Origin: Bryobacteraceae bacterium
Lineage (GTDB): Bacteria; Acidobacteriota; Terriglobia; Bryobacterales; Bryobacteraceae
Direction: 5' to 3'
DNA: 64,000 nucleotides
NCBI GenBank assembly: GCA_049587755.1
Contig: JBAVEN010000082.1
Span: forward strand, 9,804-73,803
Shown: piece after piece, positions 21,072 to 28,702 of the stretch
How positions within the stretch are numbered: position 1 is the first letter of the stretch
Layout of the letters: the number at the start of each line of letters is the position of its first letter
Notes under the pieces: model-generated
Told to the model about the DNA's origin: nothing
The model's input: only the letters and a program-made list of their open reading frames with translations
Database searches by the model: none
Translations under genes and position numbers: made by a program

Positions 21072-21389
21072 TCATTCTGCAAATACCTCGTGCAGTGTCC
21101 TCAACGTGGTGGTGAGCGTCTTTGCAGGAACCGCTCCCAGTTTCTTCGCCAGCCGGGTCTTGTCCACGGCGCGAACCTGATCGAGCAGGATCAAGCCCTT
21201 CCGGCCACCATGAGTGACGCCGATCCGGAACGGCGCCTCGCGACCCGCCGTAGTCATGGGTGCGACGAGCACTGTGCGCAGATGATCGTGCATTTCGGCC
21301 GGGGACACCACCACACAAGGGCGCGTCTTCCTGATTTCACTCCCGACGGTAGGATCAAGATTCACGAGCCAAATCTCTCCACGCGTCAC
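21072..21389 (-). CDS. mazF: MazF/PemK-family endoribonuclease toxin
   Basis: MTRGEIWLVNLDPTVGSEIRKTRPCVVVS...VAPMTT...ILLDQVRAVDKTRL. Confidence 0.85.
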   Translation of the reverse strand: MTRGEIWLVNLDPTVGSEIRKTRPCVVVSPAEMHDHLRTVLVAPMTTAGREAPFRIGVTHGGRKGLILLDQVRAVDKTRLAKKLGAVPAKTLTTTLRTLHEVFAE

Positions 21390-21649
21390 CAGACCAACTC
21401 CGAATCCTCCGCATTACCAAATTCGCCCATGACGAGTTCGTCGTCACCTGCCTCGGCGATTCTCCTGGCGGCCTCGGCCCAACCGGTGCGCGCCGGACTC
21501 GCGGGTCGGCGCAACACAAGTGCACCATCCTCGATTGTCATTTCCGCGCCCGCCCTCGCGTCCAGACCCAACTGCGCCAATACCGGTTTGGGGATGACAA
21601 CTCCTTGGGAGTTGCCTATCTGTCTTATGCTTACGTGTACAGCCCGCAT
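21386..21649 (-). CDS. mazE: AbrB/MazE/SpoVT-family antitoxin
   Basis: MRAVHVSIRQIGNSQGVVIPKPVLAQLGL, with an acidic C-terminus DDELVMGEFGNAEDSELVW. 4-nt ATGA overlap with mazF. ATG at 21647-21649; the longer track ORF is an artefact. Confidence 0.8.
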   Translation of the reverse strand: MRAVHVSIRQIGNSQGVVIPKPVLAQLGLDARAGAEMTIEDGALVLRRPASPARTGWAEAARRIAEAGDDELVMGEFGNAEDSELVW

Positions 21650-21708
21650 AGTAATAACAATGTTATTCCGGCGCGCTTGGCGTGTCAAGCAGGCGGGGCG
21701 CTCCGGGA

Positions 21709-21939
21709 TCACTTCCATGGTTCTGCCATTTCGTCGCCGATTTCGTCGAATTCTCTCTCGATTTCGGCCACGTCCAGGTTCTGATTCGCAACCTCGCAGG
21801 CACGGATCAAGGCAGCGTCGCGCTCTTCCAGCCGCGCAGCCAGGGCCCCACTTACGAAACGTGAACGGTCGCGTGAGGCAACCCGGCGCAGAAACTGCGT
21901 AGCCAACGGCTCGGGTACGCTGAAGGTCATTCTCCTCAT
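21709..21939 (-). CDS. ribbon-helix-helix (CopG/Arc-like) protein, antitoxin- or regulator-like
   Basis: MRRMTFSVPEPLATQFLRRVASRDRSRFVSGALAARLEE shows the RHH beta-alpha-alpha pattern. Acidic tail EIEREFDEIGDEMAEPWK. Start ambiguous (ATG 21954, 21939 or 21930). Confidence 0.55.
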   Translation of the reverse strand: MRRMTFSVPEPLATQFLRRVASRDRSRFVSGALAARLEERDAALIRACEVANQNLDVAEIEREFDEIGDEMAEPWK

Positions 21940-22030
21940 CGCCAACAACCCCATAGTGCCAGAAAGCCAGAATGGCAGGGCGTGGAAGCGAAACCATGCT
22001 TGTTCCTGTCCTCGCTGCTTGGTTCCGGTT

Positions 22031-22444
22031 CTAAACCCCAATCAGGACTATGTCCTCGGCGGCCGCGGCGACCCGCAGTTCCTGATCGAGGGTTGCGAGC
22101 GGAAGACCGCGGCGGCGGGCCAACTCCAAGTACGCGGCGTCATAGAGAGTCAGGCGGTAGCGCGCGGCTAATTTCGCGGTCGCGCCCCAGGCGTGACGAT
22201 CCGTTTCCCCGTCAACGGTGATGGGCAGAAGAGCAAGGTCGGCCAGTGCGGCATCCCGAAAAGCCCCGTCCGTCCGTCCCTTTCGCACGCCCATTTCGAG
22301 GACGTTCGCAACTTCGAGGCGCCAGAGCGCCGGGACCCAAGCCCCGGATTCGGTGACTTTGGCAAGCACATCGGAGACCGCTACCGTGGTTTCGGCAGAG
22401 TAGACCCAGGCGAGAGTTAAGGAACTGTCGAGGACCAGGCTCAA
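22031..22444 (-). CDS. vapC: PIN-domain VapC toxin
   Basis: LVLDSSLTLAW...YDAAYLELARRRGLPLATLD gives the PIN acidic residues and pattern. Confidence 0.85.
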   Translation of the reverse strand: MSLVLDSSLTLAWVYSAETTVAVSDVLAKVTESGAWVPALWRLEVANVLEMGVRKGRTDGAFRDAALADLALLPITVDGETDRHAWGATAKLAARYRLTLYDAAYLELARRRGLPLATLDQELRVAAAAEDIVLIGV

Positions 22445-22692
22445 GGCCTGCCCTCATCGCGGTCGGCCTTGAGGACATCCCAATTGAAAGGTCCGGTCTT
22501 CAGACTGCTGGCGCGGGAACGGATGCGTTCCGCCGCCCCCTTCGCCTGCGCGCAGTCGATGCCCCCAGCACTCGCCACCAGGCGGGCAACTGGTTTGCCG
22601 TGTCTGGTGATCACGATTTCCTCACCCCGCTCGACGCGGTCCAATAGGCTGCCCAGCGTGTTCTTGGCTTCGAAGGCTCCAACTTCCTGCAT
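22441..22692 (-). CDS. Phd/YefM-family antitoxin
   Basis: EAKNTLGSLLDRVERGEEIVITRHGKPVARLV. 4-nt overlap with vapC. Confidence 0.85.
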   Translation of the reverse strand: MQEVGAFEAKNTLGSLLDRVERGEEIVITRHGKPVARLVASAGGIDCAQAKGAAERIRSRASSLKTGPFNWDVLKADRDEGRP

Positions 22693-24336: not shown

Positions 24337-24951
24337 CTACGGCGTGACCGTCAGCGCGTACTCACGAAGCAACTCGCCGGAGGATTTGTTGACGCGCACG
24401 AAATAGCTGCCAGGAGACAGCGCCTTCAGTAGCGCCGGCGGGCCAACGGGAAACTCAGCAACTTGACTCCCCGAGGCATCCACCACTTCGCCGGTGAAGG
24501 GCTGACCATCGCTTAAGCCGGTCAGGTCGAGATCGAGCAACAGGGGGCGGCCGGCGGGCGCTTGCCCTGGCGCAGCCCCGCGGACAGCAGTTAACTCTAG
24601 AGCAAAAGGCAACGGCGCCGGCATGCTGGAACGGCGGCCGGACCATAGCGCGGCGCAAACCACCAACAGCGCCGCGATCACGAACACCGGAGTCACATGG
24701 CCAAGCCACCGTTCGCTCCATGTGCGGCTGGCAACAATGCCGGCCGCCGGCCCCGCCAAGTGGTTCCCGGACCATTGCCGGCCCGCCTGCCGCATGGCGG
24801 CGACGAAGCTCTCCGTTTCCGTCAAGCGGTCGCGACAGGTTTCACACAACAAAAGATGCTCTTCCAGGCGGCCACACCGGACCTCTGCTAGACCGCCCAG
24901 GCAATATAGCTCCAGTTCCTCCTCTTGCACATGATGTGGCGTTCGCGGCAT
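24337..24951 (-). CDS. single-pass anti-sigma factor (zf-HC2-like N-terminus, TM helix, extracytoplasmic Ig-like domain)
   Basis: MPRTPHHVQEEELELYCLGGL...EEHLLLCETCRDRL, then TM helix VTPVFVIAALLVVCAALW. It follows the ECF sigma gene. The 394-aa track ORF extension overlaps that sigma gene. Confidence 0.7.
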   Translation of the reverse strand: MPRTPHHVQEEELELYCLGGLAEVRCGRLEEHLLLCETCRDRLTETESFVAAMRQAGRQWSGNHLAGPAAGIVASRTWSERWLGHVTPVFVIAALLVVCAALWSGRRSSMPAPLPFALELTAVRGAAPGQAPAGRPLLLDLDLTGLSDGQPFTGEVVDASGSQVAEFPVGPPALLKALSPGSYFVRVNKSSGELLREYALTVTP

Positions 24952-25040
24952 ATCTCCGCTCTCCTCACATAGTACGTGCAGTACTGCCTGTAAAATTCTC
25001 AAATACTTGCCACAAAAAGTTAGTAGTCCAAAGGATGGTG

Positions 25041-25706
25041 TTATCTGAACTTGGCCGAAAAGCCCACCCGCCGGGAAAGTCGCGCCTTCCCCAATTCGCC
25101 AAAACGCGCTTTGGCGCGCGATTTGATAAGCCGAAACTGGGTTTCGGTCAGGTTCATCTCGCGGCAGATCTGCTCGGCGGGTTGTTCGTGGAGATAAAAG
25201 CGAACCAATACCTCGCGGTCGCGCTTGGCGATGCTGTTGAGTACGCGCAGAGCGACTTCGACATTCTGTCCTTGGATGGCCAGGCGCTCGGGATCGGGAG
25301 AATGATCGCGGAGCACGATTCCGTCTTCCAGGGAGGCCTGGCGCCGGCGTGCGTGCACATTGGCGTCGATACGGGCCGCCACCTGCCGCCGAACCACCGT
25401 CCGCACGTAGCCCATCAGGCGTTCGGGCTCGCGCAGTTCTCCGCTCTGAATGGCCTGAGCGATGGTCAGGAAGACGTCGTGCACCCGGTCGTCGAGATCC
25501 TGCGGCCCTAGTTGCCGGCAAAGATAGAAACGGATGCCTTTCGAGAACAGGCCGTACAGCTCTTCCAGAGCTGCCGGATCACCGGCGCGGACACCTTCCA
25601 CCAGAGGTGACCAGGCGGCGGCCTGCGGTTCGTCGTGCACCGCAGTGTTCTCCCGTTCGTGGCTGATTGGTTGGGCATTCATGGTCAAGGACGTTGCGTC
25701 ACTCAT
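25041..25706 (-). CDS. ECF-type RNA polymerase sigma-70 factor
   Basis: Region 2 DDRVHDVFLTIAQAI...MGYVRTVVRRQV. Region 4 REVLVRFYLHEQPAEQICREMNLTETQFRLIKSRAKARF. ATG 25706 overlaps the CHAT stop by 8 nt (alternative ATG 25682). Confidence 0.85.
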   Translation of the reverse strand: MSDATSLTMNAQPISHERENTAVHDEPQAAAWSPLVEGVRAGDPAALEELYGLFSKGIRFYLCRQLGPQDLDDRVHDVFLTIAQAIQSGELREPERLMGYVRTVVRRQVAARIDANVHARRRQASLEDGIVLRDHSPDPERLAIQGQNVEVALRVLNSIAKRDREVLVRFYLHEQPAEQICREMNLTETQFRLIKSRAKARFGELGKARLSRRVGFSAKFR

Positions 25707-28203
25707 TTCCCACCATAAAGTACGCTCCCCAGTAACGCGGACGAGCCCGCCAACCGCCGGAGCGAATCATTTCTCGCTGGGCTGAAGCCAGCGCCAACGC
25801 CGGGTCGGGCGTCGGCTGCGATCGTAATTCTCGATACAAAACAGCGAACAGAGCGCCGCTCTCGTCGGGAGTCTCCCAACGGCTGCCTGCCACGCTGTGG
25901 GCACCGGCGGCGAGCCAGGCGCGGGTGAGACCGAGCAATCCGGCCCCCGGCAATACACGCCCGGCATCGGAGTGGCAGCCGCTCAATACCACTAGCTCCG
26001 CCCGGGTCTTCCAATGGGCGATCTCTACGGGTGTCAACAACTCCGTCTCGCCCCGGCCGGTAAGGCTCAGCGCAATCAATCCGTAAGCAGCGCTGGCAGA
26101 ACCGGCGCGATTGCTTTGTGGCGCCGAAGATTCCAGAAAGTGGGTTGCAAAGTGGATGATTTCCGGGTCGCGATCGAGCGCGGCGGCGAGTTCCGGCCGC
26201 GCCGCCCGTGCACCCTCCAGCAGGGTCGCGGGTCCGCCCCAGGCGCGGGCGCAGGAATCCAGCTCGCTCGCGCTGGCCGGCAGCCTGGGAAGGGATAGCG
26301 TGGCCGGCGTGGCGGCGGAAACCGCGGTCGGCCGCAGCCACGCAGGCAAGTGGAATCGCACGGCGCCGCCATGCGAGGCCAAGCGGGAATCAGCGGCGTT
26401 GTAAATCGGGTCTCCGATGCCCAGAAACCGGCCGCCGGCGGACGCGGTGCCGCGCCGCGCCATGGCGTCGACCCAATAACCCGCGCCGGGTGTCACCTGC
26501 GTCACGTGGCGCTCGGCAACGTAGACATGCCGTCCCGAAGCCCGCTCCACCAGCGCCGCAAAAGGGACCTCAAACAGGCTTTTGTCGAGCGAGAGTATCC
26601 AGCGCGCTTTTTCCAGGAAACGCGGCGACACGCTCCCGAACAGGCCGTCGTACAGATCCACGGCGGAGGCCTCCGCGTCAGCCTTGTCCTGGCGGATCGC
26701 CTCCAGCGCAGCGGCGGTTTTCCGCTGCAATTGATCCTGGGGAGGCAGCCGGTAAAGCACCAGTCCCGCGCGGTCCAACACCCATAGCCAGGAGGCGGAC
26801 TCGCCCAGGCGGAAACTGAACAACGCCCCATCGGATGGCAAGGTGGCGGAAACACGGGCCAGCAGGTCCTCGCCCGAAGGCTCGAGCGGGGCTGTGGTGG
26901 AAGCCTCAATACGCGCAAGGTCGGCGCGGCGGTTTTCGACTTGCTCGCGCCGCTCGGCGTTCGGCGATTGCAGCGAGGCTGCTTCGGCGCGGCGCAACCG
27001 CTCCACGGCTTCCCAATAGGAGGGAGGTAAATCGATGGGGGCCCCGCTGCCCGATACCAGCGCCCGCAGGCTGACCGCGCGGTTCTCTTCCGCGGCCTGA
27101 AAGGTCTGGCGGATCAGCCGCGGATCCCGCGACCGTTCGTACAGGCGATTTCCCGCATCGATGTAAGCCGCGTAGACTTCATCGAGCAAACTCTCCGCGC
27201 CGATGCGCGTTGCCTCGCCCGCGGGCACCGACCAGCGAAAGGCTCTGGCCCGCTCAAGCGCGTTGCCGAGATCGTCCAGCGCCTCCGGCAGCCGTCCTTG
27301 CGCCACCCGGACCAGGCCACGAGCGTAATAAACCTGCCAGACTGGCGTAGTGGCGCCGGGCAAGGACGCCAATTCCACCGCGCGATCGAGCAGCACTGAC
27401 GCCGAAGTCAGATCTCCTTGCGCCAGCCGCAGCCTTCCCAGGGTCCGGTAGGAACTGTCCATCGGATAGTGACGAAATTTGCGAACCCGGTAGGCCTCCA
27501 GCAGCGGCGGTTCGGCGGCCGCGTAGTCCCTGTGGAGGAAGTACGCGTCGCCCAGGCTGTTGCAGCCAGTCGCGTATAGTTTCCAGTCACCAGCGGCCGC
27601 CGCGGCTTCGATTCCTTCCTGGAACGAAGCTACCGCTTCCGGCATCCGCCCGCTCTGCGCCCGCATCACACCGCGTTGAATGAGCATCTGGGCAAGATGC
27701 AGCCGGCGGTCGGTGCCGGAAAGACGCTGGATCCCTCCGTCCAGCCAGCGGACACCGTCATCCACATCTCCCATTTGGTAATACAAGGAGCCGATGTTGG
27801 CGTCGGCCACAGCCACGCCGTCGGAATCTCCTAACTTTTCCAGGAGGCTGCGCGCGCGCAGAAACGATTCCAGGGCAGCCTGATATTGATGCAGCGCGAA
27901 ACGGCAGGCGCCGACATTGCCGCCGGCACGGGCGGCCATGCGGTAGTCCCGCGCTGCTTGTGCGGTGCGCGAAAGCCGCTCGAAGGCTTCAGCGGCCTTT
28001 ATATATTGGGCCTGCGCGAACAGCTCGTCGCCCTTGCGCAACTCCACCGCGAACGGCGATAAAGCCGCGTCGCCTGTTGTCTTCGAGGCCCGCCCCCGCC
28101 CGAAGAAACGGGGTAGGTACAATGTCGCCGAGCAGGCGAACAGCACCAAAAGGCCGCACACCAAAATCCTGGCCCTTCTCAAGTAAGAATGGCTCCAGTG
28201 CAA
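25699..28203 (-). CDS. TPR-repeat CHAT-domain (caspase-like) protease with an N-terminal membrane anchor
   Basis: N-terminal RRARILVCGLLVLFACSATLYL. Multiple TPR units (AEAFERL, YQAALESF, YYQMGD...). C-terminal CHAT domain with the putative dyad context EIIHFATHFL and LVVLSGCHSDAG. TTG start at 28203. Confidence 0.85.
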   Translation of the reverse strand: MHWSHSYLRRARILVCGLLVLFACSATLYLPRFFGRGRASKTTGDAALSPFAVELRKGDELFAQAQYIKAAEAFERLSRTAQAARDYRMAARAGGNVGACRFALHQYQAALESFLRARSLLEKLGDSDGVAVADANIGSLYYQMGDVDDGVRWLDGGIQRLSGTDRRLHLAQMLIQRGVMRAQSGRMPEAVASFQEGIEAAAAAGDWKLYATGCNSLGDAYFLHRDYAAAEPPLLEAYRVRKFRHYPMDSSYRTLGRLRLAQGDLTSASVLLDRAVELASLPGATTPVWQVYYARGLVRVAQGRLPEALDDLGNALERARAFRWSVPAGEATRIGAESLLDEVYAAYIDAGNRLYERSRDPRLIRQTFQAAEENRAVSLRALVSGSGAPIDLPPSYWEAVERLRRAEAASLQSPNAERREQVENRRADLARIEASTTAPLEPSGEDLLARVSATLPSDGALFSFRLGESASWLWVLDRAGLVLYRLPPQDQLQRKTAAALEAIRQDKADAEASAVDLYDGLFGSVSPRFLEKARWILSLDKSLFEVPFAALVERASGRHVYVAERHVTQVTPGAGYWVDAMARRGTASAGGRFLGIGDPIYNAADSRLASHGGAVRFHLPAWLRPTAVSAATPATLSLPRLPASASELDSCARAWGGPATLLEGARAARPELAAALDRDPEIIHFATHFLESSAPQSNRAGSASAAYGLIALSLTGRGETELLTPVEIAHWKTRAELVVLSGCHSDAGRVLPGAGLLGLTRAWLAAGAHSVAGSRWETPDESGALFAVLYRELRSQPTPDPALALASAQREMIRSGGWRARPRYWGAYFMVGNE

Positions 28204-28226
28204 TATGGTGGTACTGACCCTGGAAA

Positions 28227-28266
28227 AATCTTTGGGAATATTCCATTCAGAATATTCCCAAAGATT
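28227..28266. promoter_or_regulatory. perfect 17-bp inverted repeat (6-nt spacer) in the CHAT operon leader
   Basis: AATCTTTGGGAATATTC (28227-28243), CATTCA, GAATATTCCCAAAGATT (28250-28266). It lies 24-63 nt upstream of the TTG start, inside an unusually AT-rich 500-bp intergenic region. Confidence 0.45.
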
Positions 28267-28702
28267 AGTATCCAGTTTTTTTTGGAAATTGACTTCCCCG
28301 CAAATGGGGGTTCTTTTGACTAAATCGCGTTTGTGGTCAACGCCGAAAAGCGGTTACTGCAGCAAAGCCGCTAAAATACACACGACCGAATAGATGATGA
28401 TAATCGGATCGCTTGTCATGTTGCTGAAAAAGACCGCACTTGTTCGAGCGGCCTTTCGACTCCAAGCCTAGTCCGGCACGCCTCGCCAACGTGTGAATTC
28501 TTATTGATAAACGATTGAAATGAAACAAAGAATTCCTGCTATTTCCTTCGTGATCGGCGTCACGCCCCGGTGTCGAGCGGGCCGGAAGAAGCGCTCACCC
28601 ACGCGAACCGTTTCCATCTGGAGTACCCGACGCCTCGCCTGCCGCCGCATCCCGTGCACGCTGCTTTAGGAAGCCCCGCCGCTGCTGGTACGATAGAAGG
28701 CG

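Follow-up and report, generated by a model that had tools for sequence, protein, structure and literature searches.

A TPR-CHAT protease, sigma factor and anti-sigma factor module conserved across Bryobacterales and its possible function as a split DdvA-DdvS system

We analyzed a 64-kb stretch of DNA from a Bryobacteraceae bacterium (hereafter the window, whose numbering is used for all coordinates), in which three consecutive genes on the minus strand encode a TPR-CHAT protease, an extracytoplasmic function (ECF)-like sigma factor and a single-pass anti-sigma factor, an arrangement already described at these positions by an earlier reading of the DNA alone (the sequence-only reading). These genes form a module that is conserved across the order Bryobacterales, and their linkage is far above chance. 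By analogy and from synteny, we hypothesize with moderate confidence that the module works like a split version of the DdvA-DdvS system, in which the CHAT protein would be the trans-acting site-1 protease of the anti-sigma factor. The parts of the module, each with the evidence used to assign it, are as follows:

25699..28182 (maximal open reading frame to 28203), minus strand: TPR-CHAT protease gene (Pfam, AlphaFold2 (AF2) model, Foldseek, catalytic dyad, hydropathy, comparison of starts and Shine-Dalgarno sequences)
25041..25706, minus strand: ECF-like sigma-70 family factor, 221 aa (TIGR02937, Sigma70_r4_2/r2, alignment A5, synteny)
24952..25040, minus strand: spacer of 89 nt between the sigma and anti-sigma genes (sequence and a motif found across loci)
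24337..24951, minus strand: single-pass anti-sigma factor, 204 aa (alignments A2/A3, AF2, Foldseek)

A scan of one genome per species recovered 366 loci with relatives of the CHAT protein, and the best 80 of these, all from Bryobacterales/Terriglobia and with CHAT identities of 37-93%, were used for the comparisons below. A sigma factor homologue lay directly downstream of the CHAT gene in all 77 loci that could be tested (the contigs of the other three stop earlier), and an anti-sigma homologue came next after the sigma gene in 69 of 74 (six more contigs end too early), so that the linkage in related genomes to which the sequence-only reading had tied its proposal was indeed found. Gene order was identical even among species whose CHAT proteins are merely 37-50% identical. 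In each of the 80 loci, CHAT has a gene to itself, located upstream of sigma, and none of the listed homologues (495-894 aa) is fused to an anti-sigma factor.

The identity of the first gene product as a TPR-CHAT protein was confirmed by hidden Markov model searches, in which the Pfam CHAT family (PF12770) matched residues 517-833 with 139 bits against a cut-off of 24 (E = 2.9e-40) and several TPR families matched residues ~57-320. The maximal open reading frame (ORF; 25699-28203) spans 834 aa from the first TTG, which is the length given previously, whereas comparison with relatives favors a start at the TTG at 28182, with a GGAG 12 nt upstream, and a product of 827 aa beginning MRRARILV; the longer figure thus stands for the ORF and not for the supported start, although residue numbers here follow the 834-aa numbering. 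The motifs IIHFATHFL and VLSGCHS, singled out before as candidate His and Cys sites, are present in the protein, and the dyad survived a proper alignment. H684, H688 and C743 are kept in all 80 homologues, which, at the level of sequence conservation, shows that catalysis is under selection and leaves the substrate unspecified.

The AF2 model of the CHAT protein (pLDDT 80.4, pTM 0.80) comprised an N-terminal helix, a long TPR-like superhelix of ~9 TPR-like helical pairs and a caspase-type alpha/beta domain, in which the catalytic His and Cys come after strands 682-686 and 737-740. When this model was compared with the PDB by Foldseek, the best matches were DdvA (8rw5, 1.3e-12; 8rot_A, 1.6e-12), followed by the TPR-CHAT protein of Craspase (7xsq_B, 7.6e-12) and then human separase (1.4e-11); the global TM-scores of these fold matches stayed at 0.27-0.34, low values that the multidomain architecture leads one to expect. 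When PDB chains were searched with HMMER, the CHAT sequence and profile recovered only TPR proteins, and the relation to Craspase and DdvA is seen at the fold level only.

Hydropathy analysis revealed one hydrophobic segment and no other in the CHAT protein, lying straight after the N-terminal MRRAR (the RRAR plus hydrophobic segment reported earlier) and conserved in the family with the consensus ..A...ACCLLV..L.GT. We predict that the protein is either exported or anchored by its N-terminus, most of it lying outside the cytoplasm. A lipoprotein was considered and rejected, as the Cys of LFAC (before S) is not conserved, the Cys residues of the other clade lie inside the hydrophobic core, and no lipobox is present. 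Two further observations concern this protein. The window clade carries an insertion of ~14 residues, SSAPQSNRAGSASA, at CHAT residues 693-706 (~26090-26130) right after the catalytic His, which was modeled with low AF2 confidence and is absent from relatives at ~50% identity. On one long-read metagenome contig (L081:5545-8004), the CHAT gene was called as two ORFs (TPR, 451 aa; CHAT, 287 aa), which probably reflects a frameshift or an assembly error and not a real split.

The best reading frame of the anti-sigma factor, 204 aa long, starts at the ATG at 24951 and stops at 24337, and NCBI lists an identical protein under a Bryobacteraceae metagenome-assembled genome. The window protein had no Pfam match of its own and resembled the ChrR zinc anti-sigma domain only weakly, while PF13490 (zf-HC2) was matched on some of its homologues. 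H7 and H32-x3-C36-x2-C39 were invariant in 34 family members (alignment A2), a zinc-binding anti-sigma (ZAS) pattern with ChrR-like spacing. The AF2 model built on alignment A3 of database homologues (pLDDT 84.6) showed three helices (residues 10-65), a disordered linker, a transmembrane helix (87-106) and an eight-strand beta-sandwich (116-203), the last with merely generic Ig/PKD-like Foldseek matches. From this model, the protein is predicted to consist of a cytoplasmic zinc (ZAS-type) domain, a single transmembrane segment and a periplasmic Ig-like ectodomain, in agreement with the previous description of a zinc-type, single-pass anti-sigma factor with an Ig-like outer domain. In the first loop of the ectodomain, R124 is invariant and G125 nearly so (alignments A2 and A3). 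Because the CHAT protein has one N-terminal signal/anchor, the protease and the anti-sigma ectodomain are predicted to share the periplasm, and the placement of both in one compartment is upheld by the predicted topology.

The second gene, as judged from its domain matches, is a two-domain (sigma2 + sigma4) sigma-70 protein of ECF-like type. It narrowly missed the curated cut-offs of TIGR02937 (42.2 bits vs 42.9) and Sigma70_r4_2 (23.7 vs 25.7) and scored 14.1 bits vs 24 with Sigma70_r2, and the earlier assignment to the ECF type is kept as a probable one. PF08281 was assigned to many homologues among the best 120 matches listed, at identities of at least 65%. The sigma factor is the most conserved of the three proteins (mean column identity of 59% in alignment A5) and has no hydrophobic transmembrane segment by hydropathy. 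Against PDB chains, neither the sigma sequence nor its profile gave more than marginal HMMER matches to sigma factors, too weak for assignment to an ECF group, which places the protein distant from every solved sigma factor.

All three genes had been proposed to be translationally coupled, and this holds for the first junction. The CHAT and sigma genes share 8 nt (ATGAGTGA, 25699-25706), which contain the stop of the former and the ATG of the latter; the two ends overlap or nearly abut in most loci, and CHAT and sigma are, on this sequence evidence, shown to be translationally coupled. At the second junction, 89 nt lie between the sigma stop (25041) and the anti-sigma ATG (24951), which is preceded by a GGAG of its own; this spacer means that sigma and anti-sigma are not coupled in this way. 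Such a spacer, mostly ~50-130 nt long, is the rule across loci, and it contains a bipartite motif, TGAGA-N17-22-CAC[CGT]T (24974-25001 on the minus strand of the window), which was found in the spacer of 33 loci and matched 7 times elsewhere in 865 kb on both strands. The motif may be an internal promoter of the anti-sigma gene, perhaps a sigma-dependent one.

The sequence-only reading had likened the module to the signaling arm of Craspase (Cas7-11, Csx29, Csx30, Csx31 and RpoE), with which it has in common the TPR-CHAT fold, the dyad and a CHAT protease genetically linked to an ECF-like sigma factor. Csx29 is cytoplasmic, is bound to and RNA-activated through Cas7-11, and cleaves the soluble Csx30 (PMC10028731). 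A CRISPR-less arm of this kind, in which a cytoplasmic TPR-CHAT protein would cleave a soluble sigma-binding inhibitor in the manner of Csx29/Csx30/RpoE, fits the common fold class (Foldseek Craspase match, 7.6e-12) and a partner from the sigma-70 family, but we consider it extremely improbable. The N-terminal signal/anchor of the CHAT protein is conserved across the family and, on the predicted topology, contradicts a cytoplasmic site; the inhibitor is a transmembrane ZAS protein and is not Csx30-like; and DdvA outranks Craspase structurally. In agreement with what was stated before, the 64 kb contain no cas gene and no CRISPR-like array (the largest ORF, 1004 aa, encodes a kinase/FGE-sulfatase protein). 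No Csx30-like gene or cytoplasmic CHAT protein is present in the window, no conserved cas-like neighbor occurs among the 80 loci, and PADLOC models gave no match to the three module proteins beyond a weak TPR one. Of the analogy to Craspase, the fold and the CHAT/sigma pairing therefore remain, whereas the Cas7-11 association, the cytoplasmic location and Csx30 do not. With DdvA as the best structural match, an exported CHAT protein and no cas genes, the evidence points to a split DdvA-type module and not to a CRISPR-less Craspase arm.

In Myxococcus xanthus, DdvA is a ZAS/transmembrane anti-sigma factor fused to a periplasmic TPR-CHAT part that blocks RseP (PDB 8ROT/8RW5), and removal of the TPR-CHAT part turns the anti-sigma factor into an RseP substrate (PMC11506125). 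The module described here resembles DdvA-DdvS in its periplasmic TPR-CHAT protein with a His-Cys dyad, in the cytoplasmic zinc-bound three-helix anti-sigma domain with a single transmembrane segment, in the adjoining ECF-type sigma gene, and in the proposed order of CHAT cleavage followed by RseP cleavage. It differs in that TPR-CHAT and anti-sigma are two polypeptides, the CHAT protein having its own signal/anchor and the anti-sigma factor a small Ig-like ectodomain, and the zinc ligands are HHCC in the window protein vs CHCC in DdvA. Fused DdvA-like proteins were reported only from Myxococcota and one Comamonas, with no Acidobacteria in the main text, and the DdvA-like pairs near defense systems are a subset only (PMC11506125). 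Here, the phylum is Acidobacteriota and not Myxococcota, no CBASS (cyclic oligonucleotide-based antiphage signaling system)/CRISPR island lies nearby (such defense genes were found neither in the window nor among the conserved neighbors of the 80 loci), and a micro-ORF and a structured leader precede the genes. Among known systems, DdvA-DdvS comes closest in both logic and structure, but the module does not qualify as a member of it, lacking the fusion and the sequence homology.

The proposal of a site-1 protease follows mainly from synteny and from DdvA, which has the same two parts on one polypeptide, and the occurrence of this fusion in another phylum provides a Rosetta-stone argument for an interaction between the CHAT protein and the anti-sigma factor. 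The DdvA-DdvS precedent, for which site-1 cleavage by CHAT has been proposed, also means that the module does not represent a wholly uncharacterized route of ECF activation, as had been claimed. To our knowledge, the signal-triggered destruction of ECF anti-sigma factors is understood for only a few protease types. DdvA, the single case with a CHAT domain, is hard to dissect, with protease and substrate on one polypeptide; in a natural split version, the protease, the substrate ectodomain and catalytic mutants can be made and mixed separately, and because the protease and the anti-sigma factor are separate genes, the question of a caspase-like site-1 protease becomes directly answerable. Acidobacteria of this order are abundant in soil and peat, and the split arrangement is conserved throughout the order.

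Several points weigh against our hypothesis. HMMER searches, both single-sequence and profile, found no similarity of CHAT, sigma or anti-sigma to DdvA/DdvS, and the parallel may be convergent. For DdvA itself, CHAT self-cleavage as a site-1 protease is a proposal (PMC11506125), and our candidate for a CHAT cleavage site, the R124-G125 loop near the membrane, is a guess. Finally, five loci (L026, L035, L036, L041 and L045) keep the CHAT gene, with H684, H688 and C743 intact, and the sigma gene, while the adjoining DNA is without an anti-sigma gene; the protease therefore cannot exist solely to cut that neighbor, unless the gene has moved.

These five loci are the main evidence for another substrate and support an alternative in which the CHAT protein is an output of the regulon. 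Sigma would then autoregulate the operon, the exported protease would act on other periplasmic or surface substrates (damaged envelope proteins, proteins of competitors or matrix), and the anti-sigma factor would be inactivated otherwise, for example by zinc/thiol oxidation of its ZAS domain or by a different site-1 protease. The conserved promoter-like motif of the anti-sigma gene, which is uncoupled from CHAT-sigma, agrees with such a role, and the invariant ZAS ligands are compatible with redox sensing. Casas-Pastor et al. regarded conserved ECF gene neighbors as regulators or targets (PMC7826278), which we counted in favor of this alternative. We nevertheless think it unlikely: so strict a linkage (77/77), or translational coupling with the sigma gene, is rare for a regulon member, the fusion in DdvA speaks for a physical connection of TPR-CHAT with the anti-sigma factor, and no other conserved substrate gene lies nearby (a TgpA-like gene is found in only ~27 of 80 loci).

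It is also conceivable, but in our view quite improbable, that TPR-CHAT is a periplasmic sensor or co-anti-sigma factor that shields the anti-sigma ectodomain, comparable to RseB on RseA or to the DdvA ectodomain vs RseP, with its proteolysis directed at itself for autoprocessing or release. The TPR-CHAT part of DdvA acts as a steric block to RseP, a TPR array is a protein-binding scaffold, and the translational coupling of CHAT and sigma suggests stoichiometric members of a complex. Against a shield of this kind, we counted the catalytic dyad, which is invariant in 80 of 80 homologues and thus a sign of selected catalysis on whatever substrate, and the lack of any sign of an autocleavage site.

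The five loci without an adjoining anti-sigma gene form a subclade. In three of them (L035, L036 and L045), the place of the anti-sigma gene after sigma is taken by a large ORF whose N-terminus resembles a signal peptide; it is ~1100 aa long in L036/L045 and BNR/VPS10-like by eye only.

Returning to the split DdvA-type module, we propose the following mechanism. Sequence and models indicate that the coupled CHAT and sigma genes are carried on an mRNA whose long, structured leader contains the Ile-rich micro-ORF, and that the anti-sigma gene, which comes next, is translated independently and has a promoter-like motif in front of it. They also place the TPR sensor/scaffold and the caspase-like His-Cys active site of the exported protein in the periplasm beside the Ig-like ectodomain, and the cytoplasmic zinc-binding domain of the single-pass anti-sigma factor would tether sigma to the membrane. 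On an envelope or extracellular signal, sensed through the TPR array, CHAT would cut the anti-sigma ectodomain (site-1), and the remaining stub would be open to an RseP-type site-2 protease and to cytoplasmic proteases. The freed sigma factor would transcribe its regulon, probably including its own operon, and the micro-ORF and the leader hairpins may tune the operon by a translation-dependent mechanism of the attenuation or processing type.

Such a scheme resembles regulated intramembrane proteolysis as in RseA/DegS/RseP and RsiW/PrsW/RasP, in that the anti-sigma factor is single-pass with its sigma-binding domain N-in and cytoplasmic, and a dedicated site-1 protease is postulated outside the cytoplasm. 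Unlike in these classical systems, the site-1 role would fall to a caspase-like Cys protease of clan CD that has a TPR sensor, and not to a serine or metalloprotease, and this candidate is encoded within the sigma operon and translationally coupled there. A CHAT-domain protein as conserved neighbor of an ECF group, with proteolytic control proposed, has also been reported for ECF54 of Actinobacteria, whose conserved neighborhood includes CHAT, subtilase and carboxypeptidase proteins (PMC8999054). ECF54 has no anti-sigma factor (PMC7826278), whereas one is present here, and the phylum is a different one. If our hypothesis is true, ECF signaling would have its first trans-acting site-1 protease of the cysteine/caspase fold. 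Taken with Craspase and DdvA, the module suggests that bacterial TPR-CHAT proteins were recruited to sigma-factor control at least three times.

The DNA upstream of the CHAT gene was conserved well above the ordinary intergenic level, and the following elements were recognized in it:

28427..28555, minus strand: upstream leader/promoter region (conserved box, AT-rich block, hairpin P0)
28354..28419, minus strand: micro-ORF MTSDPIIIIYSVVCILAALLQ with its stop (conserved pattern, third-position variation)
28220..28344, minus strand: structured 5' leader RNA (minimum free energy (MFE) folds, covariation)
28326-28344, minus strand: leader hairpin P1 (MFE folds)
28296-28310, minus strand: leader hairpin P2 (MFE folds)
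28220-28275, minus strand: leader hairpin P4, with an 18-bp core at 28228-28265 (MFE folds and covariation)

The micro-ORF of the window, MTSDPIIIIYSVVCILAALLQ, lies ~170 nt upstream of the CHAT start and is rich in Ile (M..DPIIII). By a strict pattern, micro-ORFs that have the core [DE]-P-I-I-I-[IV] and a length of 12-36 codons were found in 56 of 74 loci, with near-variants in others, mostly ~150-240 nt upstream of the CHAT start (e.g., L011:4773-4817), and some variants have a Pro run after the Ile run. Among 55 distinct micro-ORF sequences, codon positions 1 and 2 of the core were near-invariant and third positions varied, a contrast to be read with the fact that the search pattern itself conditions on amino acids. 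The micro-ORF may be a regulatory leader or an arrest peptide.

The stretch from the micro-ORF to the CHAT ribosome-binding site contains four hairpins, of which P3 occurs in most relatives but not in the window clade. Separate MFE folds of 40 leader sequences converged on the same architecture, and the structure voted from these per-sequence folds was tested on alignment A6, in which 84.1% of cells were paired vs 35-54% in slid controls and two-sided changes occurred at 26 of 35 pairs vs 12-15 in slid controls. None of 500 shuffles attained the observed values. The 18-bp core of P4 was 92% paired and showed compensatory changes in 15 of its 18 pairs, while RNAalifold on the raw MAFFT leader alignment recovered two helices only. 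An Rfam search of the leader gave no credible match.

Two explanations of P4 were rejected, namely a genome-wide repeat (neither the window nor 865 kb of loci contained a copy beyond the leader) and an intrinsic terminator in general (a T-run follows P4 in the window clade only). As a matter of speculation, the long perfect stem of P4 could be an RNase III site. When metagenomes were scanned with a palindrome pattern, 42 of 120 matches adjoined a CHAT gene, with the micro-ORF seen on such contigs; 7 more had the micro-ORF but ended close to the hairpin on one side, and their CHAT gene may lie off the contig; and the other 71 were unrelated inverted repeats, the palindrome pattern alone being non-specific.

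Further upstream, a G[GA]TCAC box (28550-28555 in the window) stands at a fixed distance of -132 to -144 from the micro-ORF ATG and is followed by a conserved AT-rich block and then by hairpin P0 (28427-28453), just 5' of the micro-ORF and with a T-run in the window. The region 28427-28555 is a candidate promoter or insulator. A regular expression for a G[GA]TCAC-type box gave no match elsewhere in the window, though the same expression also missed the window's own box.

Short upstream reading frames are well known as regulators in other settings: the ilv leader peptides are rich in Ile/Val, and ErmCL is a short arrest peptide. Like such attenuators, the element described here combines a very short upstream ORF that has a run of a single residue with conserved hairpins before the regulated genes. 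Unlike the ilv and ErmCL leaders, it precedes a protease/sigma operon and not genes of amino-acid biosynthesis or resistance, and no terminator T-run is conserved beyond the window clade. The micro-ORF and leader RNA together appear to be a candidate new, undescribed element, and no description of this acidobacterial module was found in the literature, ECF-Hub group descriptions not being covered. The combined proposal, in which an exported stand-alone TPR-CHAT protein is the dedicated trans site-1 protease of a zinc-type ECF anti-sigma factor and the module is in addition gated by an undescribed leader (Ile-run micro-ORF, four-hairpin RNA and 20-bp stem), is one that we put forward tentatively and with some doubt.

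As regards neighboring genes, large ORFs of the window encode housekeeping or carbohydrate-active enzymes. The GH28 gene next to the anti-sigma gene had been suggested as a regulon member, which synteny does not support, and it was rejected as a conserved partner, as GH28 adjoins the module in only 2 of the 80 loci (L008 and L009). In ~27 of 80 loci (L001-L006, L010-L013, L081:9351-11478 and others), the next gene after the anti-sigma gene encodes, on the same strand, a ~710-aa membrane transglutaminase, which in L081 was labeled TgpA_N + Transglut_core + DUF4129 by independent gene calls. The window has no TgpA-like transglutaminase gene; by synteny, this gene is a better regulon candidate than GH28. 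Just beyond GH28, two back-to-back type II toxin-antitoxin pairs occupy 21072-22692 on the minus strand (MazE/PemK-MazF at 21072-21637 and Phd-YefM/PIN at 22031-22692), and their presence suggests a lineage-specific rearrangement downstream of the module.

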